26,674 bases of DNA from an uncultured virus (IMG/VR IMGVR_UViG_3300016464_000385) (taxonomy: Duplodnaviria; Heunggongvirae; Uroviricota; Caudoviricetes): the IMG/VR virus record IMGVR_UViG_3300016464_000385; one strand, 5' to 3'. Below, one piece after another: positions 9,862-20,165 of this stretch (within the stretch, counting starts at the first letter, position 1; each line of letters opens with the position of its first letter). Below the pieces are notes generated by a model. The model worked only from the letters and a program-made list of their open reading frames with translations. It was not told the DNA's origin and made no database searches. Made by a program: the position numbers and the translations under genes.

Positions 9862-9904
9862 AAAAAATTTTACTTTTTTAATTTTTTATATATAATATGA
9901 GTAT

Positions 9905-9979
9905 TGGCGAGTAGCACAGCGGTAGTGCAAATGACTGTTAATCATTGGGTCGGGGGTTCGAATCCCTCCTTGCCAGCCA
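9905..9979 (+). tRNA. tRNA-Asn(GTT)
   Basis: Cloverleaf, loop CTGTTAA, encoded CCA. Confidence 0.95.
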
Positions 9980-10058
9980 ATTTTTCGTCGTGGTGTGTCG
10001 GCCTCCGATAAATTTTAAGTAGAGATCACGACGTTTTATTTTAATATGGAGATATATT

Positions 10059-10220
10059 ATGAGTGGATCAGTAGTTAAAAAGTGTGGATGTAAAGGAAAT
10101 CCGCCTAATGGTTCTGATTTTCAGGATAAGAAATATGGTGATGGTATGAGAGTTTGTAATTTAGATCTTAAGAAAAGTGTTGCTTCTTGTACTGTTTGTG
10201 GAAAAGATCATAAAATTTAG
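10059..10220 (+). CDS. 53-aa Cys-rich putative zinc-binding protein (not in ORF track)
   Basis: MSGSVVKKCGCKGNPPNGSDFQDKKYGDGMRVCNLDLKKSVASCTVCGKDHKI; GGAG RBS. Confidence 0.75.
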   Translation: MSGSVVKKCGCKGNPPNGSDFQDKKYGDGMRVCNLDLKKSVASCTVCGKDHKI

Positions 10221-10263
10221 TATAAATATAATTGTTAAAATTTAATTTTTTATAAATAGAAGT

Positions 10264-10386
10264 ATGAATAAAATAAACAACCTCATGATTAATACAACGA
10301 ATATAATGCCGCTAACATGGCAGATTCGCTCTTGCGCGTTTTATAGTCAAGAATCGTATAAAACGTTTTCTGGGGTTTATAGTTAA
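10264..10386 (+). CDS. Putative 40-aa leader peptide of an attenuator
   Basis: MNKINNLMINTTNIMPLTWQIRSCAFYSQESYKTFSGVYS; ATG lies 5 nt after TATAAATA; its 3' end is complementary to the downstream terminator. Confidence 0.5.
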   Translation: MNKINNLMINTTNIMPLTWQIRSCAFYSQESYKTFSGVYS

Positions 10387-10415
10387 ATTATAATAAAAAA
10401 TATTAAATAAACTTT

Positions 10416-10447
10416 AACCCCAAGCATTAAAAACTTGGGGTTTTTTA
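10416..10447 (+). terminator. Intrinsic terminator (possible attenuator)
   Basis: AACCCCAAG-CATTAAAAA-CTTGGGGTT followed by a T-run. Confidence 0.8.
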
Positions 10448-10467
10448 TTTTTAAGGAAGTAAAAACT

Positions 10468-10518
10468 TTACTTTCTACGAAAAACCCGTATAATAGTTTT
10501 TCGTAAGCTCTTTAACAA
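10468..10518 (+). promoter_or_regulatory. Sigma70-like promoter followed by rrn-type boxA
   Basis: TTTACT...TATAAT, then GCTCTTTAACAA at 10507-10518. Confidence 0.7.
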
Positions 10519-10532
10519 TTTGGAAAAATATT

Positions 10533-10607
10533 TCAGGAATCGTCTAATGGTAGTGACCTCAGCCTTTGAAGCTGAAGATCGTGGTTCGAGTCCACGTTCC
10601 TGATCCA
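10533..10607 (+). tRNA. tRNA-Gln(TTG)
   Basis: Cloverleaf, loop CTTTGAA, CCA. Confidence 0.93.
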
Positions 10608-10682
10608 TATAGAAACACATTCTTTGAGGTCTTGGTCGTTACCAGCGTAGCAAAAACGGCGACAGAGTGTGTTTCTATATGG
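10605..10682 (+). ncRNA. Long-stem structured element (family B, copy 1)
   Basis: CCATATAGAAACACATTCT / AGAGTGTGTTTCTATATGG 19-bp stem enclosing small hairpins. Confidence 0.6.
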
Positions 10683-10683
10683 T

Positions 10684-10781
10684 ATTATATAAAAGTATAT
10701 TCGCTGTCCTATTTGGATGGATAGTCCTGTTAATCGTTACTAGTGCGAGGGATATTGACAAAGAATATACTTCTATATAAT
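10684..10781 (+). ncRNA. Long-stem structured element (family B, copy 2)
   Basis: ATTATATAAAAGTATATTC / GAATATACTTCTATATAAT stem enclosing hairpins. Confidence 0.6.
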
Positions 10782-10787
10782 TTTAAT

Positions 10788-10862
10788 GCCCTTGTAGTGA
10801 AATGAATATCACGAATCGCTACGGACGATTTATTGGGAGTTTGAATCTCTCCGAGGGTGCCA
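10788..10862 (+). tRNA. tRNA-Arg(ACG)
   Basis: Cloverleaf, loop CTACGGA, CCA; atypical D-loop (no GG) and T-loop TTTGAAT. Confidence 0.88.
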
Positions 10863-10870
10863 ATTTAAAT

Positions 10871-10958
10871 GGAGGGTTATGTAACCTGGGATGTTACGTC
10901 TGCCTTGAAAGTAGAGCGAGCCGAAAGGCCAGGAGTTCGATTCTGCCATCCCTCCGCC
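10871..10958 (+). tRNA. tRNA-Ser(TGA), atypical
   Basis: GGAGGG/CCCTCC acceptor, loop CTTGAAA, long variable arm; imperfect T stem, ends GCC without full CCA. Confidence 0.72.
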
Positions 10959-11009
10959 CTTGAGTTATTGTCGAGACTCGAACCTTATAAATAGAACAGA
11001 GGTAAAATT

Positions 11010-11687
11010 ATGTTCTATACAATTTATAAGATAACAAATCAGATAAATGGCAAATTCTATATTGGAAGTCATAAGACCAAAAATTTGAACGACGATTATA
11101 TGGGTTCTGGTAAGTATTTAAAATACGCGCAAGAAAAATATGGTATTGAAAATTTCACAAAGGAAATTTTGTTTGTATTTGATACTCCAGAACTTATGTA
11201 TGAAAAAGAAGCAGAAATAGTTAATGAAGATTTTATTTCAGAAGAAAATACCTATAATATAAAAATAGGTGGTTTTGGTGGATGGGATTTTATCAATAAA
11301 AATGAAATAATGCATAACGGCATGAGTAGAAATGAATTTAATAAAATGGTTTCTCCGTTTTCGAAATTTTCTGAAGAAAAGAGACAGGAAATTTTAAATA
11401 AGGCTTCTATATCCGTTATAGAAAAAGGTTCTTGGAAAAATGGTATTAATACTATAAAAGAAAAATACCCTCAAGGTACATTTTCAGGAAAATGTCATTC
11501 AGAAGAAACAAAACGAAAAATAGGAGAAAAGAATTCTGTAAATCAACAAGGAGAAAAGAATTCCCAATTCGGAACTACTTGGATTTGGTGTAAAGACCAA
11601 GGAAATAAAAAAGTAAGAAAAGATTCGCTACAGGAATATTTAGATAAAGGTTGGGAAAAGAAATATATTCCTGGTTATAAAATATAG
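11010..11687 (+). mobile_element. GIY-YIG (Seg-like) free-standing homing endonuclease
   Basis: YTIYKITNQINGKFYIGSH...YMGSG; NUMOD3-like HSEETKRKIG; TATAAATA upstream. Confidence 0.9.
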
Positions 11688-11772
11688 AAGAAAATATCAA
11701 CTGGTGTTGATACACGCTTGGAAAGCGCTGTGACTCGAAAGGGTTGGGGTTCGATTCCTCTTTCTTCTGACA
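11686..11772 (+). tRNA. tRNA-Ser(GGA), atypical
   Basis: AGAAGAA/TTCTTCT acceptor, loop TTGGAAA, long variable arm, TTCGATT; ends GACA. Confidence 0.7.
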
Positions 11773-11779
11773 ATTCAAA

Positions 11780-11868
11780 GGAAGATTAACTGCTCGGGGT
11801 AGCAGCGCTGTTTGCTAAACAGTTGGAACCTGAAAGGGTTTGGGAGTCGGGATCTCAATTTTCCGCCA
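11780..11868 (+). tRNA. tRNA-Ser(GCT)
   Basis: Loop TTGCTAA, long variable arm, non-canonical T-loop GTCGGGA, GCCA end. Confidence 0.82.
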
Positions 11869-11874
11869 ATATTT

Positions 11875-11948
11875 GCCTCTATAGTTTAACGGTAAAACAG
11901 TTGCCTTGTAAGCATCTGATCTCAGTTCGATTCTGGGTTGAGGCTCCA
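11875..11948 (+). tRNA. tRNA-Thr(TGT)
   Basis: Cloverleaf, loop CTTGTAA, CCA. Confidence 0.9.
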
Positions 11949-11954
11949 ATATTT

Positions 11955-12036
11955 GGTTCAGTGCCTGAGTGGTCTAAGGGGTCGGTCTGCAAAACCGATA
12001 ATTTAATCAGCAGTTCGAATCTGCTCTGAACCTCCA
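11955..12036 (+). tRNA. tRNA-Cys(GCA)
   Basis: Cloverleaf, loop CTGCAAA, U73, CCA; enlarged variable region. Confidence 0.9.
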
Positions 12037-12098
12037 AAATAAAATGCTTGACTTTTATAAAAGAATAAAGTAAAATAGTTACATAAGTTGAATTAAAT

Positions 12099-12126
12099 GG
12101 ACCTGTCGTCTACTTGGTTTAGGATA
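12099..12126 (+). pseudogene. Truncated 5' tRNA fragment (Glu/Asp-type D arm)
   Basis: GGACCTG-TC-GTCTACTTGGTTTAGGAT with no 3' half, immediately before an endonuclease gene. Confidence 0.55.
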
Positions 12127-12183
12127 AATTAAATCAATCTTAAAATTCGGATTCCACTAAATAATATTAAAGTGGAGGTTTAT

Positions 12184-12969
12184 ATGAAAATTTGTCCTAA
12201 ATGTGGAGCGCGACACAATAAAAATGGAATATTTTGTTCTAGGAGTTGCGCCAATTCTAGAGTATGGACTGAAGAGATAAATGAATCTAGAAGAAAAAAG
12301 TTAAAAGACAATCCAGAAGTTATACCTTGGAATAAAGGAAAACATATAAAAGAAAGAATAAAAAAGGTTTGTAAAGAATGCGGAAAAGAGTTTGAAATTC
12401 TTAAATCATATAACGATAAAAATAACCCTAAATATTGTTCAAGCGAATGTGTTTATAAAAATTCTGGAGGATATAGGGAAGGATCTGGAAGATCAAAATC
12501 TGGATATTATAAAGGAATATATTGCGGTTCAACATATGAACTTGCTTGGGTGATTTATCAAATTGATAATAACATAGAGTTCCAAAGGTTTACTGGTACG
12601 TTAGAATTTGATGGAAATAAGTATATCCCAGATTTTATTCAAAATGGTAAAATTATAGAAATAAAAGGATACGAAAAAGAAGAATCTGTCGAAAAGAAAA
12701 ATTTAATAGCAAAAGCGAACGGTTTTGAAGTTTTTGTTTTGAGAAAAGAAAATCTAGAAAAAGAATTTGCTTGGGTTGAATCGAAGTATAAAACTAAAGA
12801 GTTATATACTTTATATGATGAATATAAACCAAAATATGAATATGTTTGTGATTATTGTAATAGCGTATTTCGTAAAGAACGTAAAATAATCACTAAACAT
12901 AAATTTTGTAATAGATTTTGTGCTGGAAAAGGGCATAAAGGTAGAAAGAATAAAGTCCTCATAGATTAA
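12184..12969 (+). mobile_element. Putative homing endonuclease, PD-(D/E)XK core with Cys-rich zinc/TRASH-like repeats
   Basis: CPKC..FCSRSC, CKEC..YCSSEC, STYEL..YIPDF..IIEIKG; GGAGG RBS before ATG 12184. Confidence 0.78.
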
Positions 12970-13032
12970 TTGGTTTAAATCGACAGACTTTCAATCTGTA
13001 GACTCCGAGTTCGATCCTCGGTGGGGACACCA
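12955..13032 (+). tRNA. tRNA-Glu(TTC)
   Basis: Cloverleaf, loop CTTTCAA, CCA; overlaps the endonuclease stop. Confidence 0.9.
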
Positions 13033-13126
13033 ATTTTAAAAATACATTCGCCTACGACGGTAGGTATTGTTGTGGTCCAATATTCTAGACGTAGGGTTCG
13101 ATTCCCTAGAGTGTACTTCTGAAAAT
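13033..13126 (+). ncRNA. tRNA-like long-stem element (family B, copy 3), His-like
   Basis: TACATTC/GAGTGTA stem extended outward, D-like hairpin, TATTG-TTGTGGTC-CAATA hairpin, perfect T arm TAGGG-TTCGATT-CCCTA, no CCA. Confidence 0.6.
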
Positions 13127-13133
13127 AAGTTTT

Positions 13134-13227
13134 GGGTGTCTTGCAGATATGGTGTGTTCTGCTCCGGACTGTAAATCCGGTCCCTCGTTGGTAAACATTC
13201 GCGGTTCGACTCCGTGGACACCCACCA
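13134..13227 (+). tRNA. tRNA-Tyr(GTA)
   Basis: Loop CTGTAAA, long variable arm, CCA. Confidence 0.9.
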
Positions 13228-13233
13228 AACAAT

Positions 13234-13307
13234 CGCGGGATGGAGAAATAGTAACTCAAGAGTCTCATAAGCTCTAGGTCCAGGTGCAATTCCTGGTCCC
13301 GCTACCA
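13234..13307 (+). tRNA. tRNA-Met(CAT), initiator-like
   Basis: CGCGGGA start with C1 unpaired, loop CTCATAA, T-loop TGCAATT, CCA. Confidence 0.82.
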
Positions 13308-13310
13308 ATA

Positions 13311-13530
13311 TGCGTTGCAACTAATGTCGGTGCTCCAGTTCTCCCGACTTAAAATGACTGATGATTTGTAGAAACAAGTTGATAGAGGTTCGAAACTTTA
13401 TCAGAATGCGACTATGATAGGTAATAACTGGGCCAATTTTATCTTGCGCACATCGTATAATTCGGGTAGACTTTTAAATGAGAAAGTCGCGCAAGAAGTC
13501 TAACAGAAAACCGTGACAGTTAGACAACTA
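13311..13530 (+). ncRNA. Unidentified multi-hairpin structured RNA(s)
   Basis: GTCGG/CCGAC, CCAGTT/AACTGG, TGATAGAG/CTTTATCA, TCTTGCGC/GCGCAAGA, GACTTT/AAAGTC, GTCTAAC/GTTAGAC helices. Confidence 0.5.
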
Positions 13531-13535
13531 ATTTT

Positions 13536-13609
13536 GGGAGTATAATTCAATGGCAGAATATCTGGCTTTTAACCAGTCTACGAAGGTTCGATTCCTTCTA
13601 CTCCTACCA
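13536..13609 (+). tRNA. tRNA-Lys(TTT)
   Basis: Cloverleaf, loop CTTTTAA, CCA. Confidence 0.93.
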
Positions 13610-13615
13610 AGTTTT

Positions 13616-13672
13616 AGGATACATACAGCAATTTAAAAAACTTTTATGGGAAAAAGCAAAAAGTATCCTGTT
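13616..13672 (+). ncRNA. Y-RNA-like element (family A, copy 1)
   Basis: AGGATAC-ATACAGCAA...GTATCCT-GTT with a small CTTTT/AAAAG hairpin. Confidence 0.65.
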
Positions 13673-13687
13673 GATTAAGACCATATT

Positions 13688-13804
13688 AGGTTTGTTACAG
13701 CAATATTAATATTTTCTTTGCAACAGAAAAAGACTAGGTTCGAATCCTAGCATAGATTGGTCATCTATGTGGTGTAATGGATAGCACAAAAAAAGCAAAC
13801 CTGT
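13688..13804 (+). ncRNA. Y-RNA-like element (family A, copy 2) with permuted tRNA body
   Basis: AGGTTTG-TTACAGCAA; anticodon-like TTTTCT-TTGCAAC-AGAAAA; T arm; closed acceptor CATAGAT/ATCTATG; D arm; CAAACCT-GT. Confidence 0.75.
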
Positions 13805-13813
13805 ACTTATTTC

Positions 13814-13887
13814 GCCTCATTAATTCAAAGGTAGAATACCGAACTGATAATTCAGAAACAATGGATCGTTACCATTATGAGGCACCA
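13814..13887 (+). tRNA. tRNA-Ile(GAT)
   Basis: Loop CTGATAA, T-loop ATCGTTA, CCA. Confidence 0.85.
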
Positions 13888-13913
13888 ATTTGACACTAAT
13901 AATTAGGTATATT

Positions 13914-14231
13914 ATGTTAGAAAAACAAACTCTTTCTTATTATGATTGGGATGATATTCAACAGTTTTTATCTGAAAAAATGAATATTGATGATGCTAAT
14001 TTTAGAGATTATCCTAAAGAATATAAAGATTTTTGGTATGTTTGGTTAGATATTGTATATGAAGACGTTCGAAACGATTCTTATAAAACATATTGGTTTG
14101 ATATGATGTTAGATAAAAAAGATTCAATAATAGCTAATCGAGGTGAATGGGTTTCTATTTTATTTGATGCTTTAAATGAATTACAAAAAGAAGTAAATGA
14201 AGAATATATAGTAATACGATATTCTTGGTAA
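13914..14231 (+). CDS. Hypothetical acidic, Trp-rich protein
   Basis: AGGT RBS before ATG 13914; ends in YSW. Confidence 0.7.
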   Translation: MLEKQTLSYYDWDDIQQFLSEKMNIDDANFRDYPKEYKDFWYVWLDIVYEDVRNDSYKTYWFDMMLDKKDSIIANRGEWVSILFDALNELQKEVNEEYIVIRYSW

Positions 14232-14234
14232 TTA

Positions 14235-14308
14235 GGTTGTATAGTTAAGTGGTATAACTAGAGATTCATATCCTCTTATCACCGGTTCGATTCTGGTTAC
14301 AACCACCA
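14235..14308 (+). tRNA. tRNA-Met(CAT), probably elongator
   Basis: Cloverleaf, loop TTCATAT, CCA. Confidence 0.85.
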
Positions 14309-14316
14309 AAGTTTAA

Positions 14317-14391
14317 GGTTCTATAGTGTAGTGGTCTGCACGATGCTCTGTCACAGCATAAGTAGGGGATCGTTCCCCCTTAGAACCGCCA
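14317..14391 (+). tRNA. tRNA-Asp(GTC)
   Basis: Loop CTGTCAC, T-loop ATCGTTC, GCCA. Confidence 0.88.
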
Positions 14392-14452
14392 ATTTAGGTT
14401 TAGTGGTAAGGTTTGAAGTTTGAGTTTTTATAAATAGTATAGAGGTAATTTT

Positions 14453-15028
14453 ATGCTATTATGTAAATATTGTAATAAAGAATGCAAAAACGATAATTCT
14501 TTAAGAAATCATGAACGATTGTGTTCTAAAAACCCGAATAAACAAATCGCCAAAATAGAAAATTTAAATAATTATTTAGCTAAGAAAATGTGTAAATTTT
14601 GTTTGAATGATTATTCTCTTGGAAATTTAACCAAGCACGAGAAAAGTTGTAAACAAAACCCCTTAAATTTTAAAGAATGTCCTGTTTGTAAAAAAAATCA
14701 TACAAAGAAAAGCGTAACTTGTTCTTATAGTTGTTCTAATACTTTTTTCCGAAGCGGAAAAAATAATCCTAATTGGAAAGAACATAGTTATAGAACAACT
14801 TGTTTTGAATTTCATAAAAAACAATGTATTGTTTGCGGAGAAGAAAAAATAGTTACGGTTCATCACTTAAACGAAGATCATAGTGACAACAGGCCAGAAA
14901 ATTTAATACCTTTATGCCCTACTCATCATCAATATGTTCATAGTAGGTATAAAGAAGAAGTTCAATCTTATATTGATGATTATATAAAAACTTTTATTTC
15001 CGTTCGTGGGTCATTGGTTGACCACTAG
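14453..15028 (+). mobile_element. HNH homing endonuclease with N-terminal C2HC zinc-finger repeats
   Basis: CIVCG..VHHLNEDHSDNRPENLIPLCPTHHQYVH; TATAAATA upstream. Confidence 0.88.
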
Positions 15029-15074
15029 TTTTGGGAACTAGATTAAGGGAGTTCGAGTCCCTCTACACGGACCA
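15000..15074 (+). tRNA. tRNA-Pro(TGG), chimeric or mispaired
   Basis: Loop TTTGGGA; acceptor CCGTTCG/TACACGG and T stem GGGAG/CCCTC carry mismatches. Confidence 0.7.
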
Positions 15075-15081
15075 ATTTTAA

Positions 15082-15156
15082 TGGCAATTAGCACAGCGGT
15101 AGTGCATCGGACTGTTAATCCGTGGGTCGTAGGTTCGAATCCTACATTGCCAGCCA
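15082..15156 (+). tRNA. tRNA-Asn(GTT), second copy
   Basis: Cloverleaf, loop CTGTTAA, CCA. Confidence 0.95.
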
Positions 15157-15162
15157 ATTTAT

Positions 15163-15240
15163 GGGGAATGGGACTGCTTGGGGTGGTCGTAAGTTTTGCA
15201 AACTTATTTCAGATCGGTTCGAATCCGATATTCTCCACCA
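15163..15240 (+). tRNA. tRNA-Ala(TGC)
   Basis: G3:U70 pair, loop TTTGCAA, CCA. Confidence 0.9.
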
Positions 15241-15290
15241 ATTTATTTTTAATTATTCAGTTTGAAGGCAATTTTATATAAAAAATAAAT

Positions 15291-15364
15291 ATCTCAGTGG
15301 TGTAACGGTAACATGTCACGCTCCAAACGTGGTGTTGAGGGTTCAAATCCTTCCTGGGATGCCA
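15291..15364 (+). tRNA. tRNA-Trp(CCA)
   Basis: Cloverleaf, loop CTCCAAA, CCA. Confidence 0.92.
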
Positions 15365-15402
15365 ATTTAAAATTGGTGTAAAATTATAAAAAAAGTAATG
15401 TA

Positions 15403-15588
15403 ATGAATAAAGAAAAAATTCAAAAACGTTTAAATTTGATTAACAAATCGCTTAATATATTATCAGATTGTGCTCATATGGACCAATTTGTAACAGGTTC
15501 TAAAGAAAGAGATAATACATATATAAGAGCAATTCTTCTATTAAAAGAAAAAAGAGAAAAATTAAATAATATTATTTTAAGAGAATAA
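15403..15588 (+). CDS. Small hypothetical protein
   Basis: 61-aa ORF on the coding strand. Confidence 0.5.
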   Translation: MNKEKIQKRLNLINKSLNILSDCAHMDQFVTGSKERDNTYIRAILLLKEKREKLNNIILRE

Positions 15589-15611
15589 AAAATATGTAAC
15601 AAGAGGTAATT

Positions 15612-16082
15612 ATGCGTACTATTAATGTAGAAGAAGTAAAAGAATATATAGAATCATTGGGTCCAAACACTAAAATATATATCGGCGGAGACTCTGAACG
15701 CTTCAAATTAAACGGTCAATGGTACGCAGATTATACTCTAGTTATAGTAGTACATATTAACGGTAAACATGGTTGTAAAGTTTTTGGTGAAATCCATAGG
15801 GAAAGGGATTTTGATCAAAAGAAACAAAAACCAAGAATGCGTCTTATGACAGAAGTATATAAAATAGCAGAATTATATCTAAAATTAAAAGACGTTCTGG
15901 AAGATAGAGAAGTAGAAGTCCATTTAGATATTAACAAAGATGAAAAATTTGGAAGTTCTTGTGTAGTTAATGAAGCTATCGGATACATTCGTGGTATGTG
16001 TAACGTAACGCCATTCGTAAAACCCAACGCTTGGGCAGCTTCTACCTGCGCTGATAGACTAAAAAGTTTAAATGTTGCATAA
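15612..16082 (+). CDS. RNase H-like YkuK/DUF458 family protein
   Basis: IYIGGDS, RLMTEV, EVHLDIN, VKPNAWAASTCAD motifs. Confidence 0.85.
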   Translation: MRTINVEEVKEYIESLGPNTKIYIGGDSERFKLNGQWYADYTLVIVVHINGKHGCKVFGEIHRERDFDQKKQKPRMRLMTEVYKIAELYLKLKDVLEDREVEVHLDINKDEKFGSSCVVNEAIGYIRGMCNVTPFVKPNAWAASTCADRLKSLNVA

Positions 16083-16090
16083 AAAAATGA

Positions 16091-16118
16091 TTGACTTTTT
16101 GAAAAAGTTTAGTATAAT
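16091..16118 (+). promoter_or_regulatory. Sigma70-like promoter driving the family A array and the DUF2828 gene
   Basis: TTGACT-N16-TATAAT, 10 nt before the first element. Confidence 0.7.
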
Positions 16119-16128
16119 AGTTAAATAA

Positions 16129-16211
16129 AGGATGAATACAGTTTTAAATACTCAATCTCGGTCCTAAGATGCCTATATGGTTGACCGATTTAGTAAAAAT
16201 ACTATTCTGTT
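16129..16211 (+). ncRNA. Y-RNA-like element (family A, copy 3, divergent)
   Basis: AGGATG-AATACAG...TATTCT-GTT with internal TCGGTC/GACCGA helix. Confidence 0.55.
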
Positions 16212-16220
16212 AAGATTTTT

Positions 16221-16332
16221 AGAATCCTTACAGCATAATTATTGCATTGAAAGCCGTTTACATAGGTTCGATTCCTATTTTCCCCACATGGAAATAGCTT
16301 AGTGGTAAAGCAACGAAAAAGAGGATTCTGTT
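16221..16332 (+). ncRNA. Y-RNA-like element (family A, copy 4) with permuted tRNA body
   Basis: AGAATCCT-TACAGCA; T arm ATAGG-TTCGATT-CCTAT; TTTCC-CCACAT-GGAAA; D arm GCTT-AGTGGTA-AAGC; AGGATTCT-GTT. Confidence 0.78.
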
Positions 16333-16340
16333 AAGTTTTT

Positions 16341-16398
16341 AGGTTCGATTCAGCAAAATAACTTTCCGCCACATTTGGAAAAATAAAACGAACCTGTT
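16341..16398 (+). ncRNA. Y-RNA-like element (family A, copy 5)
   Basis: AGGTTCG-ATTCAGCAA; hairpin TTTCC-GCCACATTT-GGAAA; CGAACCT-GTT. Confidence 0.7.
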
Positions 16399-16407
16399 AA
16401 TGATTTT

Positions 16408-16525
16408 AGGGTACATACAGCCAAAATTTTTTGCAATTGTAATGCCGTGGTTGTTGGTTCGAGTCCAACTTTCTCTTAGGAGAAATAGCTCAATCGGTAG
16501 AGCACGTAAAAAACTGTATCCTGTT
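16408..16525 (+). ncRNA. Y-RNA-like element (family A, copy 6) with permuted tRNA body
   Basis: AGGGTACA-TACAGC; GCA-ATTGTAA-TGC; T arm GTTGG-TTCGAGT-CCAAC; TTTCTC-TTAG-GAGAAA; D arm GCTC-AATCGGTA-GAGC; TGTATCCT-GTT. Confidence 0.8.
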
Positions 16526-16533
16526 TAAATGTT

Positions 16534-16597
16534 AGGTTTATTTCCGCATATTAAAATAAACAAACTGAAACTTTGTCTAAAAAACATATAAACCTGT
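16534..16597 (+). ncRNA. Y-RNA-like element (family A, copy 7) with Phe anticodon stem-loop
   Basis: AGGTTTAT-TTCCGCA; ACAAA-CTGAAAC-TTTGT; ATAAACCT-GT; abuts the RBS of the DUF2828 gene. Confidence 0.68.
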
Positions 16598-16606
16598 GAG
16601 GTAATT

Positions 16607-18028
16607 ATGAACGCATTTGTAAACGCTGTTAAAAATCAAGAAGCTTTTACCGAAAATGGTATGAAGGCTCGTAAAAATACTGCAAACGCCGTTGTTGATC
16701 TATTTTATAAAGTTGGTGCTTCTCGCGGTAAGAATATTGTTCCTGACTTTACCGCTGCTTTTGTAGAAAATCCAGAACTAGCAATTCGAGTAGCTCTTTG
16801 GGCTCGCGACGTTCGTGGTGGGGCAGGTGAACGCGAAGTTTTTCGTCAAATTTTACTATATCTAGAAACCACTAATCCAAAATTAGTAGAAAAGATTCTC
16901 CCAAAAGTTCCTGAATTGGGTCGTTGGGATGACCTTCTAACTTTTAAGTCAGATTTCCGTTGGAAGGCATATGACTTTGTTAAGGATGCTATTTCTGCTA
17001 AGAATGGTTTATGCGCAAAATGGATGCCTCGTAAGGGCGAAGTTGCGGTAGAACTTCGTAATGCTCTAGGAATGTCGCCTAAACAATATCGTAAGACTTT
17101 AGTTAATTTAACTAAGGTTGTAGAAACTCAAATGTGCGCTAAAGATTGGAATAACATTAATTTCAGTCATGTTCCATCTGTGGCTTCTGCTAGATATAAG
17201 AAGGCTTTCTGGCGTAATGCTAAGGATACTTATGAATCTTATGTTGCTTCTCTTGTAAAAGGTGACAATCCAAAAGTTAAGGTTAATGCAGGAGCGGTTT
17301 ATCCATATGATGTACTGAAGGGTCTTTCAATTACATCAAGAAGTTATAACAAAACTCAACTTGATCTAATAGTCAAGCAATGGGAAGCTCTTCCTAATTA
17401 TGTTGGAGATGCTAGTATTCTACCTTTGGTTGATGTATCTGGTTCTATGATGTGTAAAGCGGGTGGAGCAGTTTCTAAAAGCGAAACTTCTTGTTTAGAT
17501 GTAGCTGTTTCTCTAGGTTTATATCTAGCAGAAAAGAATACTGGAGATTTTAAGGATACTTTCTTGACTTTTTCTAGTAATCCGGAATTATTACATCTAA
17601 AGGGTAATGTTGTGGATAAAATGAATCAGATGGTAACATCTGATTGGGGAATGTCTACTGATTTACATGCGGCTATGGATAAAATCTTACAAACTGCTGT
17701 AAATGGTAAAGTTTCTGGAGATGAAATGCCAAAAATACTATTGATCCTATCTGATATGCAGTTCAATCAATGCACTAGATTTAATGATTCTGCATATGAA
17801 ATGATCTCTCGTAAGTTTGAAAACGCAGGATATAATATGCCTAACATTGTTTTTTGGAATTTGAACGCGAAAGATAATGTTCCTGTTAAGTATGATACTA
17901 GCGGTGTATCATTAGTATCTGGATTCAGTCCATCTATAGTAAAAGCTATTCTATCTGCGGATACTAAAGACTTTACTCCAGAAGCAATTTGTCTAAAAAC
18001 GATTATGAATACACGTTACGACTTTTAA
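16607..18028 (+). CDS. DUF2828 helical domain plus C-terminal vWA protein (Ro60/TROVE-like architecture)
   Basis: TENG, RDVRGGAGER, GRWDDL, AKWMPR; MIDAS DVSGSM, ILSDMQF, IVFWNL, VSGFSP. Confidence 0.85.
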   Translation: MNAFVNAVKNQEAFTENGMKARKNTANAVVDLFYKVGASRGKNIVPDFTAAFVENPELAIRVALWARDVRGGAGEREVFRQILLYLETTNPKLVEKILPKVPELGRWDDLLTFKSDFRWKAYDFVKDAISAKNGLCAKWMPRKGEVAVELRNALGMSPKQYRKTLVNLTKVVETQMCAKDWNNINFSHVPSVASARYKKAFWRNAKDTYESYVASLVKGDNPKVKVNAGAVYPYDVLKGLSITSRSYNKTQLDLIVKQWEALPNYVGDASILPLVDVSGSMMCKAGGAVSKSETSCLDVAVSLGLYLAEKNTGDFKDTFLTFSSNPELLHLKGNVVDKMNQMVTSDWGMSTDLHAAMDKILQTAVNGKVSGDEMPKILLILSDMQFNQCTRFNDSAYEMISRKFENAGYNMPNIVFWNLNAKDNVPVKYDTSGVSLVSGFSPSIVKAILSADTKDFTPEAICLKTIMNTRYDF

Positions 18029-18032
18029 TTTA

Positions 18033-18057
18033 AGGAGAGTTTCGGCTCTCCATTTAA
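18033..18057 (+). terminator. Hairpin (weak terminator or processing site)
   Basis: GGAGAGT-TTCG-GCTCTCC followed by ATTT. Confidence 0.55.
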
Positions 18058-18071
18058 AATATTACTATATA

Positions 18072-18134
18072 AGGATACATTCAGCAAACCAAAAACACCA
18101 GACTCCTAATCTGAAACGTTAAACGTATCCTGTT
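18072..18134 (+). ncRNA. Y-RNA-like element (family A, copy 8) with Arg(CCT) anticodon stem-loop
   Basis: AGGATAC-ATTCAGCAA; CAGA-CTCCTAA-TCTG; GTATCCT-GTT. Confidence 0.72.
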
Positions 18135-18150
18135 AATTTTGAGGTAAATT

Positions 18151-18756
18151 ATGAAAGAAAATCTAACTGAAATTGTTGTAATTATTGATGCTTCTGGTTC
18201 TATGCATAATTTTTCTTCTGATACCATCGGAGGATTTAATGCTTTTATAGAGGAACAAAAGAAACTTCCTGGAGAAGCTAATATCACTTTAGCTACATTT
18301 AACGGCGTTGACCCTAATAATATTATATTTGATGGAGTAAATATACAAGATTGTCCTGGATTAAGTTCGGATAGTTATAAGCCAGATGGTATGACTCCGC
18401 TTTATGATGCTGTAGGAAATACTATTTCTGTAGTCGGAAAACGATTGGCTCAAATCCCGGAAGAAGAACGGCCATCTAAAGTTCTATTCTTGATTACTAC
18501 AGATGGTTTAGAAAATTGCAGTAAAGATTATACTAGAGAAAAAATTAAGAGTATGATTTATCATCAAAAGACTAAGTATAATTGGGAGTTTGTATTTACT
18601 GGGGCTAATATTGATTCTGCTTCTGTAGCTGATTCTATGAATATTTCATCTTCTGTAAATTACGATCAAAATAATACTTCTAATTTATATAGAGATGTAT
18701 TTAATACAGTTGCTTCTTCTTTCAGAGCAACTGGAAAATTAACTGTGAACGATTGA
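18151..18756 (+). CDS. Stand-alone vWA domain protein
   Basis: IIDASGSM MIDAS, GMTPLYDAVG, ITTDGLEN, WEFVFTGAN. Confidence 0.9.
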   Translation: MKENLTEIVVIIDASGSMHNFSSDTIGGFNAFIEEQKKLPGEANITLATFNGVDPNNIIFDGVNIQDCPGLSSDSYKPDGMTPLYDAVGNTISVVGKRLAQIPEEERPSKVLFLITTDGLENCSKDYTREKIKSMIYHQKTKYNWEFVFTGANIDSASVADSMNISSSVNYDQNNTSNLYRDVFNTVASSFRATGKLTVND

Positions 18757-18790
18757 ATAAATTACTAAATACTTTAATTTAAGGTAATAT

Positions 18791-19186
18791 ATGAAGTCGT
18801 ATAAAAATTTTATAGAAGAAAATATTAATGAACCTAAATTTGGCGATAGCCAATCTTTAAGAGCAGTCAAAAACGCTCGAAAAATAATTGATAAAATGAA
18901 ACAAGAATATAAAGATGGTAAGATTGATTTACCCACTCTTCAACATTCAACTAAACATATAACGCACGCGATTAATTTTGCAGATCAATTTAAAGATGAT
19001 CCTCAATGGAACGATTTAATGCGTAATCATATTGATGGTACAAAATATGTTATAGATAGAACGTTGGAGAGAGGATCTAAATCTTTAAATGTTGATATGG
19101 CAAAACATGCTAAAAAACATTTAACTGATTTACTATATTCCATCGAAGATTATTTTGTCCATGATCAATCTCATCAATATAGATAG
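18791..19186 (+). CDS. Putative internal head protein
   Basis: N-terminus MKSYKNFIEE resembles the T4 capsid-targeting sequence; ACTAAATA late-like promoter upstream. Confidence 0.55.
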   Translation: MKSYKNFIEENINEPKFGDSQSLRAVKNARKIIDKMKQEYKDGKIDLPTLQHSTKHITHAINFADQFKDDPQWNDLMRNHIDGTKYVIDRTLERGSKSLNVDMAKHAKKHLTDLLYSIEDYFVHDQSHQYR

Positions 19187-19234
19187 AATAAAAAGCTTTA
19201 CTTTTTTCTGATATATAGTATAATATATTAAATC

Positions 19235-19269
19235 GCGGGTATCGTATAATGGTTATTACCTCTGCCTTC
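19235..19269 (+). pseudogene. 5' half of tRNA-Gly broken within the anticodon
   Basis: GCGGGTA-TC-GTATAATGGTTATTAC-C-TCTGC-CTTC then unrelated AT-rich sequence. Confidence 0.75.
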
Positions 19270-19300
19270 ACATTTATATAAATACAAATAAGAGGACTAT

Positions 19301-19804
19301 ATGTTTTATTACTTGTATCAAATAAGAAATAATGTGAATGGAAAAATATATATTGGGGTCCATAAAACCAATGACTTAAATGATGGATATATGGGTTCCG
19401 GTAAACGCTTACATGATGCATATAAGCACCACGGAATAGAAAATTTTACCAAAACTATTTTGGAGGAATTTAATAATTCTGATGAGATGTATGCTAGAGA
19501 AAAACAAATAGTCACCGAAGAGTTTTTAAATAGAAACGATACCTATAACCTTCGAAGAGGCGGGACCGGAGGATTTGATTTTATCAATAATTCTGGGATT
19601 CAAAAATTCAAAGGAAAATCGCATTCTGTTGAATCCAGGTCATTAATGGGCCATCCGGGGAATAACCACGCCGTTGGAAATACTGGTGGCAAAAAGAACA
19701 AAGGGAAAAAGAGAGAGCGTATAGAATGCCCACATTGCCACAAAATATGTGGGGTAAATATGATAGTAAGACATCATTTAGATAAGTGTAAAATGCGGGT
19801 ATAA
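19301..19804 (+). mobile_element. GIY-YIG (Seg-like) homing endonuclease
   Basis: YLYQIRNNVNGKIYIGVHKT...YMGSG; C-terminal CPHC..HHLDKC; TATAAATA at 19277-19284. Confidence 0.9.
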
Positions 19805-19869
19805 CTCAGCGGTAGAGTGTCAGCCTTCCAAGCTGTTCGTCGTCGGTTCGATTCCGATTACCCGCTCCA
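19795..19869 (+). tRNA. tRNA-Gly(TCC)
   Basis: Cloverleaf, loop CTTCCAA, U73, CCA. Confidence 0.93.
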
Positions 19870-19880
19870 ATTTTAATTTA

Positions 19881-19965
19881 GGGGATATGGTGAAATTGGT
19901 AAACATAGCAGACTTAAAATCTGCCGCCGAAAGGCTTGTCGGTTCGATTCCGACTATCCCCACCA
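19881..19965 (+). tRNA. tRNA-Leu(TAA)
   Basis: Loop CTTAAAA, variable arm, CCA. Confidence 0.95.
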
Positions 19966-19976
19966 AGTTTTAAACT

Positions 19977-20053
19977 GGGCCTCTAGCTCAATTGGTTAGA
20001 GCATCCGACTCATAATCGGCAGGTTTACGGTTCAAGTCCGTAGTGGCCCACCA
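19977..20053 (+). tRNA. tRNA-Ile2(CAT), lysidine type
   Basis: GGGCCTC start and GACTCATAATC arm as in ileX-type tRNAs. Confidence 0.85.
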
Positions 20054-20088
20054 AACAACGACTATTTGAGTTTAATTGATGATTAAAT

Positions 20089-20165
20089 GCGGCTGTAGCT
20101 CAGTGGATTAGAGCAACGAGCTTCTACCTCGTTAGTCGGGGGTTCGAGTCCCTCCAGCCGCGCCA
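20089..20165 (+). tRNA. tRNA-Arg(TCT)
   Basis: Cloverleaf, loop CTTCTAC, CCA. Confidence 0.95.

Follow-up and report, generated by a model that had tools for sequence, protein, structure and literature searches.

A cluster of tRNA genes in DNA of the uncultured virus IMGVR_UViG_3300016464_000385 holds four predicted nuclease genes (ORF1 to ORF4; ORF, open reading frame), each of which reads up to or into the tRNA gene that follows it. The window denotes the whole 26,674-nt stretch, and all coordinates refer to it. PHROG and Pfam searches revealed in the window a gp32-like single-stranded DNA-binding protein, a gp59-like helicase loader, PhoH, a Ro-like RNA-binding protein and NAD-salvage enzymes (NAMPT-like), and because of these genes the window is attributed to a T4-like phage. 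Near-identical DNA was found in freshwater, lake and estuary metagenome runs. As one part of our best overall explanation, we hold, on balance, that the window comes from a T4-like phage of fresh or estuarine waters, as yet uncultivated, and contains its tRNA gene cluster.

A megablast search of the 50,697 phage records of INPHARED revealed no close relative, matches being confined to short tRNA pieces. Contigs of IMG/VR and JGI likewise contained none, the best of them reaching 67% identity in the Ro-like anchor protein, and this distance rules out a nucleotide-level comparison with nuclease-free sisters. The comparison loci drawn from relatives are labelled L001 to L066, L045 being the RB32 record NC_008515.1. 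The features discussed below are collected in Table 1.

Table 1. Positions of the tRNA genes, tRNA remnants, promoter-like motifs and nuclease genes discussed in the text (window coordinates).
Feature	Position	Strand	Basis or remark
tRNA cluster	9905-20165		20 tRNAs by default ARAGORN, 22 with -ps90, 18 by Rfam at gathering score
Weak class-II tRNA-Ser(UGA)-like gene upstream of ORF1	10871-10958	+	tRNA-Sec model 28.8 bits, sub-threshold; ARAGORN -ps90 tRNA-Ser(tga)
TATAAATA motif, 24 nt before ORF1 ATG	10986-10993	+	motif scan
ORF1, 225-aa SegB-like GIY-YIG homing endonuclease	11010-11687	+	phrog_314, E 1.8e-48
Non-canonical Sec-like tRNA, anticodon GGA	11686-11768	+	Rfam RF01852 (tRNA-Sec) 37.0 bits, below 47-bit cut-off
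Sigma-70-like match TTGACT, 17 nt, TAAAAT, upstream of tRNA-Glu remnant	12048-12076	+	consensus match only
Decayed tRNA-Glu remnant	12100-12160	+	core 12105-12124 = acceptor and D arm, positions 6-26; outer limits by eye
ORF2, 261 aa, zinc ribbons and probable PD-(D/E)xK core	12184-12969 (ATG); longest ORF from GTG 12172	+	phrog_1271
Intact tRNA-Glu(UUC)	12955-13032	+	first 15 nt = last four codons and stop of ORF2
Decayed tRNA-Pro 5' remnant and conserved cassette left end	14394-14428	+	homologous to upstream regions of L046, L047, L048
TATAAATA motif, 24 nt before ORF3 ATG	14429-14436	+	motif scan
ORF3, 191-aa HNH homing endonuclease, zinc-finger modules	14453-15028	+	Pfam HNH_3 20.8 bits (cut-off 24.8)
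tRNA-Pro(UGG)	15000-15074	+	first 29 nt within ORF3; stop in anticodon stem
Sigma-70-like match TTTACT, 16 nt, TATAAT, 11 nt before Gly stump	19197-19224	+	same pair and spacing at 9869 and 10467
tRNA-Gly(UCC) 5' stump, 35 nt, breaks inside anticodon	19235-19269	+	local alignment
TATAAATA motif, 24 nt before ORF4 ATG	19277-19284	+	motif scan
ORF4, 167-aa GIY-YIG homing endonuclease, C-terminal Cys/His motif	19301-19804	+	Pfam GIY-YIG E 9e-8, 32.8 bits (cut-off 22.6)
Intact tRNA-Gly(UCC)	19795-19869	+	first 10 nt = last codons and stop of ORF4

Nuclease genes and the tRNA genes they meet

The four stop codons lie at 11685-87, 12967-69, 15026-28 and 19802-04, as an earlier note on this DNA had given them and as the ORF list and the sequence confirm. 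The same note had described all four stops as overlapping or lying within tRNA genes, and this is confirmed, three ORFs ending inside a tRNA while the stop of the fourth touches a non-canonical one. ORF2 shares 15 nt with a tRNA-Glu beginning at 12955, ORF3 29 nt with a tRNA-Pro beginning at 15000 and ORF4 10 nt with a tRNA-Gly beginning at 19795; all three tRNAs were called by default ARAGORN, with Rfam tRNA matches in agreement. The borrowed stop is often the conserved U8-A9-G10 of the tRNA, read as TAG.

The tRNA placed at 11686 behind ORF1, by contrast, depends on the model applied. It was missed by default ARAGORN and by Rfam at gathering score, matches the tRNA-Sec family at E-values of 1.7e-4 and 1.7e-5, and was called tRNA-Ser(gga) at 11689-11769 by ARAGORN -ps90. 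Because these tRNA models differ, the stop of ORF1 either overlaps the tRNA by 2 nt (Rfam) or falls 1 nt short of it (relaxed ARAGORN). With its 8-bp acceptor stem, 6-bp D stem, long variable arm and anticodon GGA, this tRNA resembles the 'allo-tRNAs' described from metagenomes. ORF1 is flanked by two Ser-like tRNAs, the upstream one being weak and not called by default ARAGORN. A third Ser-like tRNA, suspected by eye at about 11790-11870, was found by neither Rfam nor ARAGORN and was discarded.

The tRNA-Pro(UGG) at 15000-15074, in which the overlap is deepest, scores lower with Rfam than any other tRNA matched in the cluster (38.9 bits). Two adjacent mismatches were read by eye in its acceptor stem, whereas the tRNA-Pro genes of L046-L048 have perfect stems, and the copy in the window may be decaying.

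The nucleases themselves had been assigned by the earlier note to three families. Of these, GIY-YIG (ORF1, ORF4) and HNH (ORF3) were recovered, while ORF2 showed no catalytic domain above threshold and only leads towards PD-(D/E)xK, so that the presence of three families in the cluster is probable. ORF1 is 43-44% identical, over 97% of its length, to the annotated segB of RB32, RB33 and PP01 (tblastn); its Pfam GIY-YIG match of 19.9 bits lies under the cut-off of 22.6, and NUMOD3 is likewise sub-threshold. ORF4, which matches phrog_314 at E 2.1e-41, is 55% identical to ORF1 in the first 100 aa only. It has no full-length similarity to SegB, having the N-terminal 100 aa in common and a different, Cys/His-containing C-terminus. 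The homologues of ORF3 in L046 and L047 reach HNH_3 scores of 24.9 and 25.2 bits, above the cut-off that ORF3 itself does not attain, and five of its eight PHROG matches at E <=1.1e-4 are HNH families.

ORF2 has the zinc-ribbon module alone in common with ORF3. Its Pfam matches are sub-threshold (DUF790, E 1.2e-3; Phage_endo_I, 0.027), and Atlas searches returned TnsA_N, DUF7487, endo I and DUF559, restriction-endonuclease-like families that serve as leads only. An E...PD...ExK pattern, seen by eye, is conserved in the ORF of L063, to which ORF2 is 55% identical. The AF2 model was unusable (mean pLDDT 37), and a PDB sequence search gave a single chance-level match, to an adhesin (E 0.27). Judged from these sequence patterns, ORF2 is a probable PD-(D/E)xK nuclease.

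Stop codons borrowed from tRNA genes

Our survey covered ORFs of at least 100 aa on the tRNA strand whose ends fall in the range from 70 nt inside the next ARAGORN tRNA to 250 nt ahead of it, in the window and in L001-L066. The 61 non-redundant ORFs obtained were classed by PHROG, Pfam or homology to the window nucleases, and zinc-finger ORFs of uncertain class in L052 and L054 were left out. Overlap of nuclease ORFs with tRNAs exceeds chance: 19 of 26 nuclease-like ORFs overlap the next tRNA, against 2 of 33 others (Fisher, 7e-8), and restricting the comparison to ORFs ending <=15 nt from a tRNA leaves 19 of 20 against 2 of 14 (2e-6). The non-nuclease ORFs mostly stop 1-12 nt short of the tRNA; the nuclease ORFs that do not overlap (7/26) end 8-239 nt before it.

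ORF1 was scored from the Rfam tRNA, and with ORF1 uncounted the figure becomes 18/26 (Fisher, 5e-7). Common ancestry connects the junctions of L046 and L048 and those of L051 and L055; among independent nuclease junctions, 15 of 22 overlap. Eight ORFs spanning a whole tRNA were excluded with their family unscanned, and by position none of them enters a tRNA from a nuclease 3' end; one excluded ORF is a NADAR protein in L029 with a 10-nt tRNA overlap. What emerges from the window and its relatives is a countable rule, in which nuclease genes borrow tRNA stops and other genes do not.

All 19 read-ins are at most 38 nt long. A stop occurs within 40 nt in 58% of tRNA/frame combinations (393 tRNAs), which gives a joint probability of 3e-5. 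As they lie nearer to +1 than chance would place them, the borrowed stops appear to be used and to be under selection, and some translation must for this reason finish on unprocessed precursors. Stops inside tRNAs also seem to be costly, since ordinary genes avoid them, and a stop beyond the RNase P site probably lowers nuclease expression.

The earlier note had seen in this geometry a built-in throttle, by which RNase P cleavage at +1 of the tRNA would produce a non-stop mRNA and transfer-messenger RNA (tmRNA) tagging and so limit nuclease expression. On this view the tagged product would be destroyed and a toxic enzyme kept in check. The arrangement of all four genes would permit it, a processing-based limit has been proposed for T4 segB and mentioned for T5 nucleases in PMC2330249, and the scarcity of stops inside tRNAs in flush ORFs other than nucleases (2/14 against 19/20) would be expected if stops beyond the RNase P site cost expression. 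Stops that are never used should, however, be randomly spaced, and this strict version of the throttle conflicts with the shortness of all 19 read-ins. It also sits poorly with the variation of overlap length and partner tRNA within nuclease families, with the 7 of 26 nuclease ORFs that stop well before or just short of the tRNA, and with T4 segB, which retains its own stop. A throttle designed in this way we consider doubtful. An RNase P throttle on nuclease expression as such is plausible and was already proposed for T4 segB in 2008.

Remnants of tRNA genes and related elements

New in this cluster are a tRNA-Gly stump, a decayed tRNA-Glu and a decayed tRNA-Pro upstream of nucleases that run into intact tRNAs of the same isotype. 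The best local match of the Gly stump is to positions 0-34 of tRNA-Gly(tcc), with a score reached by 0/200 and 0/100 shuffles. For the Glu remnant the three top local matches are all tRNA-Glu(ttc), a score that 1/200 and 2/100 shuffles reached. The Pro remnant of the window is weak alone (9/200 and 15/100 shuffles), and its counterpart in L047 is a clear tRNA-Pro 5' stump (positions 0-30, score 55, 0/100 shuffles). The isotype of the stump hence equals that of the intact downstream tRNA for Gly, Glu and, by way of L047, Pro. Aligned with MAFFT, the four ORF3-family upstream regions match one another and do not align reliably with tRNA-Pro genes. Rfam gave no tRNA match in the two stump regions, as expected for internal half-molecules, and local alignment detected no tRNA remnant in the spacer before ORF1.

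Three of the nuclease genes (ORF1, ORF3, ORF4) are preceded by the motif TATAAATA, which we take to be the T4 late-promoter consensus, in each case at a distance of exactly 24 nt from the ATG. The motif also occurs 31-44 nt upstream of four other plus-strand genes. Sigma-70-like matches are not in excess across the region as a whole. Three plus-strand sites (9869-9896, 10467-10494 and 19197-19224) have the particular combination TTTACT, 16 nt, TATAAT, each of them ahead of a tRNA or stump, the first lying 9 nt before a tRNA-Asn.

Group I introns of tRNA genes are known to sit in the anticodon, and the Gly stump breaks inside its anticodon, as might be expected if a nuclease-bearing intron had split a tRNA in the anticodon loop. 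No Rfam intron family matched, and the ORF is followed by a complete tRNA instead of a 3' half. The complete downstream tRNA contradicts the intron explanation, to which we assign practically no probability.

A second explanation regards the overlaps as a by-product of tight packing, in which cassettes entered short spacers, deletions trimmed their stops, and the stumps represent unrelated decay of redundant tRNAs. Spacers between tRNAs in the window measure 6, 6, 8, 7, 6, 11 and 11 nt, and when relatives are included, 143 of 363 tRNA pairs lie <=15 nt apart. Non-nuclease ORFs are likewise flush with tRNAs (+1 to +12 nt), the natural protein end in L050 lies only four codons past the junction, and relatives often carry tRNAs of the same isotype in tandem (L015 has Asn-Asn, L023 both Pro-Pro and Asp-Asp, and L003 Glu-Glu as well as three tRNA-Pro). 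Packing, however, leaves unexplained why the own stop was lost in 19 of 20 flush nuclease ORFs and in 2 of 14 others, and why stump and downstream isotypes agree for Gly, Glu and the Pro family, which by our estimate would happen by chance about once in 20 per case. We therefore regard packing as an unlikely explanation.

The overlaps that the earlier note had described in the window recur in homologous elements, among relatives of ORF3, ORF2 and the GIY-YIG genes alike. Five homologues of ORF3 cover the nuclease domain (L046-L050). Three of these (L046-L048) repeat the layout of homologous upstream region, TATAAATA, homing-endonuclease gene and tRNA-Pro, with a clear Pro stump only in L047; they overlap tRNA-Pro by 24, 15 and 24 nt and follow tRNA-Thr, tRNA-Met and tRNA-Lys, respectively. 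The L049 gene begins 63 nt after an intact tRNA-Pro and overlaps a tRNA-Asn by 21 nt, and that of L050 comes after an intact tRNA-Pro, lacks a tRNA downstream and possesses its own stop four codons past the conserved end. The conserved protein end is flush with tRNA +1 in L046-L049 (Pro or Asn) and lies 4 nt before +1 in the window. Given these flush ends and the own stop of L050, the ORF3-family junction looks like a stop codon lost at the tRNA boundary.

The ORF2 homologues in L063 and L065 begin 56 and 58 nt, respectively, behind an intact tRNA-Glu, and each has a 10-nt overlap with the next tRNA. The GIY-YIG relatives start 28-45 nt after an intact tRNA-Ser or tRNA-Gly, and their ends lie either 4 nt within the next tRNA or 57-166 nt short of it. 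Altogether the nuclease genes of L001, L003, L049, L061, L063 and L065 start 28-63 nt after an intact tRNA of the stump isotype or a tRNA-Ser, and the tie to an upstream tRNA of the stump isotype is at least as strong as that to the downstream tRNA. Among 15 further nuclease genes in relatives, four have a significant upstream tRNA-like fragment (L018, L055 and L004, each 0/60 shuffles, and L065); in L018 the downstream isotype, tRNA-Leu(taa), ranked second only. The conserved cassette left end was sought in IMG/VR, and in 80 of the 116 matching stretches that were followed up, 10 had an ORF behind the motif, of which only the three already known were ORF3-like. In an estuary-metagenome variant (run X4), ORF1 shows 60 differences in 707 nt, and its junctions and those of ORF2 are the same as in the window. 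The patchy spread of nuclease homologues among distant relatives fits a mobile gene.

A side observation concerns one contig of run X4, in which the tRNA-Cys is replaced by 30 other letters in the segment from tRNA-Thr to the promoter-like site before ORF2 (window 11949-12066); this would be a presence/absence variant of tRNA-Cys.

The view of the earlier note that each element travels with a replacement tRNA allele survives in part. The Gly and Glu stumps and the ORF3-family unit with its differing upstream tRNAs speak for it, and the downstream partner, which is not fixed, speaks against it. Taken together, the stumps and the recurring ORF3-family unit partly support co-mobility of nuclease and tRNA.

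Same-isotype tRNAs on both sides of a nuclease that reads into a tRNA would also result from segmental amplification of the SegB type, that is, tandem duplication of a tRNA-nuclease unit by microhomology followed by decay of the upstream tRNA copy. T6 escape mutants, according to PMC13096335, carry repeats of tRNA-Tyr and truncated segB joined by microhomology. The window nucleases, in contrast, are untruncated: ORF1 aligns to SegB almost from end to end, and the ORF3 family ends like L049 and L050. The Gly stump and the intact tRNA-Gly, moreover, have only 20 of 36 positions in common and are for that reason not recent duplicates. Such an amplification seems distinctly improbable for the present cluster.

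The explanation that we favor, and hold to be rather probable, is that four SegB-type free-standing homing-endonuclease cassettes colonized the tRNA cluster, displacing or copying tRNAs and borrowing their stops. Each cassette would comprise a nuclease ORF devoid of its own stop codon, preceded by a short leader and a ribosome-binding site, and its right edge would coincide with +1 of the next tRNA or lie no more than 2 nt from it; because of this edge the ORF would read on to the first in-frame stop inside the tRNA. In co-infection the nucleases might cut tRNA genes of nuclease-free phages in the manner of SegB, and repair would copy the nuclease together with adjoining tRNA sequence. The Gly, Glu and Pro stumps would then be leftovers of a displaced or redundant tRNA copy. 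With the stop placed on the far side of the RNase P site, a normally terminated nuclease would come only from precursors that have not been processed, and selfish nucleases may tolerate the probably lower expression, which other genes of the cluster would avoid.

Several results weigh against this colonization by cassettes. Window tRNAs are all 65-84% identical to their best counterparts in relatives, a comparison that does not set the nuclease-linked tRNAs apart from the others. Resident and incoming tRNA-Gly could not be told apart in 13 relatives, whose tRNA-Gly match the stump at a mean of 21.4 and the intact copy at 21.7 of 36 positions, both copies being equally distant. The Pro stump is not significant on its own in the window, L046 or L048 when judged by shuffles, and a clear same-isotype 5' stump was present in none of the 15 further nuclease genes, so stumps are not general. 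Homologous nucleases also precede tRNAs for Asn, Gln, Asp, Cys and Thr, contrary to a strict nuclease-tRNA link; in L057 a tRNA-Asn remnant lies upstream, yet the ORF runs into a tRNA-Cys. In RB32 the segB stop is found 3 nt before tRNA-Arg (ARAGORN), outside the tRNA. No contig joined across an empty nuclease site was seen among the Logan contigs of four metagenome DNA runs, where the listed joints have sides of 20-39 nt (one of 73 nt) and mostly look like tRNA cross-matches from other organisms; ORF3 in run X3 and ORF1, ORF2 and ORF4 in run X7 were uncovered, which is not evidence. Homing is something we infer, as no nuclease-free allele was recovered from INPHARED, IMG/VR, JGI or Logan.

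Further features of the cluster and its relatives are recorded here in their own right. Fragments resembling T arms or tRNAs lie between intact tRNAs at 13040-13120, 13330-13410 and 13690-13760 (blastn-short T-arm matches), and ARAGORN -ps80 called a tRNA-Leu(caa) at 13047-13116; these fragments are possibly additional decayed tRNAs. Two matches to YrlA, a Y RNA-like family, stay below threshold (16255-16317, 27.3 bits; 16445-16509, 42.4 bits; cut-off 69) and are located just upstream of the Ro-like ORF at 16607-18028 (DUF2828/DUF7788, phrog_850 'RNA-binding protein'), a gene found in or beside the tRNA cluster in most of the 13 IMG/VR relatives scanned for tRNAs. An RNase H-like ORF (15612-16082; PF04308, phrog_11311) is conserved in the tRNA clusters of L015, L016, L019 and L023, where 5-70 nt separate its end from a tRNA. 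Possible suppressor tRNAs (anticodons tta, cta) and phage tmRNA genes were noticed in relatives (L015 2265-2341; L029 5134-5210 and 4070-4444; L014 376-739).

Known systems and the meaning for phage tRNA clusters

Homing endonucleases of phage tRNA clusters are known from T4 and T5 and have been linked since 2026 to escape from tRNA-targeting defenses. The layout described here is already known from phage T4, and the window is a further, well-preserved example. As reported in PMC2330249, SegB recognizes the T-loop motif in tRNA genes, cleaves these genes at the 3' end and promotes the transfer of its own gene, along with neighboring T4 tRNA genes, into T2L. In the same text Brok-Volchanskaya et al. 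(2008) proposed that cleavage between the last codon of segB and its stop during maturation of tRNA-Arg limits expression. The notion of stop removal by RNase P is accordingly not new, and tmRNA tagging is what the earlier note added. The T5 nucleases F-TflI, F-TflII and F-TflIV resemble the window genes, by the description given there, in being nuclease ORFs within a phage tRNA cluster, and lowered expression through transcript processing was suggested for them too.

ORF1 and T4 SegB agree in sequence, as noted above, and in position, both lying about 40-55 nt after one tRNA and flush with the next. They differ in that the accessible account of SegB describes no tRNA stump, and in that the window holds four predicted nuclease genes of three probable families. 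In record NC_008515.1, all eight annotated RB32 tRNAs are shifted to the right relative to the ARAGORN calls, by 15-17 nt and mostly by 16, so that segB and tRNA-Arg appear 19 nt apart in the record instead of 3 nt.

According to PMC13096335 (2026), segB homologues are widely associated with tRNAs of many isotypes. The T6 mutants of that study are alike in the junction between nuclease 3' end and tRNA 5' end, there formed by microhomology, and differ in a nuclease truncated by 28 aa and in identical repeats, whereas the window nucleases are of full length and its tRNA copies differ. Full-text searches, which had the supplements of PMC13096335 outside their scope, found in the literature neither tRNA stumps beside homing-endonuclease genes nor a survey of stop codons inside tRNAs.

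Animal mitochondria offer a more remote parallel. There, tRNA punctuation makes mRNA 3' ends through tRNA processing, and polyadenylation completes stop codons. Their ORFs without a complete stop of their own are an analogy only, stop completion by polyadenylation being not shown for phages.

The window adds four nuclease genes in one cluster to these systems, and the stumps are physical scars suggesting that resident tRNAs were replaced jointly by nuclease and tRNA genes. More generally, and with a good deal of reserve, one might propose that in phage tRNA clusters selfish nucleases have as a rule given up their stops, while useful genes keep theirs before the RNase P site. How much nuclease is made would then depend on a race that translation runs against tRNA processing, the losers being dealt with by ribosome rescue, and the units of stump, nuclease and tRNA would be cassettes for the replacement of tRNA alleles. 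If such a race does limit nuclease dose, it would tame a selfish gene by simple and general means; and if the units are indeed replacement cassettes, swaps of tRNA alleles between phages could matter for escape from tRNA-cleaving host defenses.

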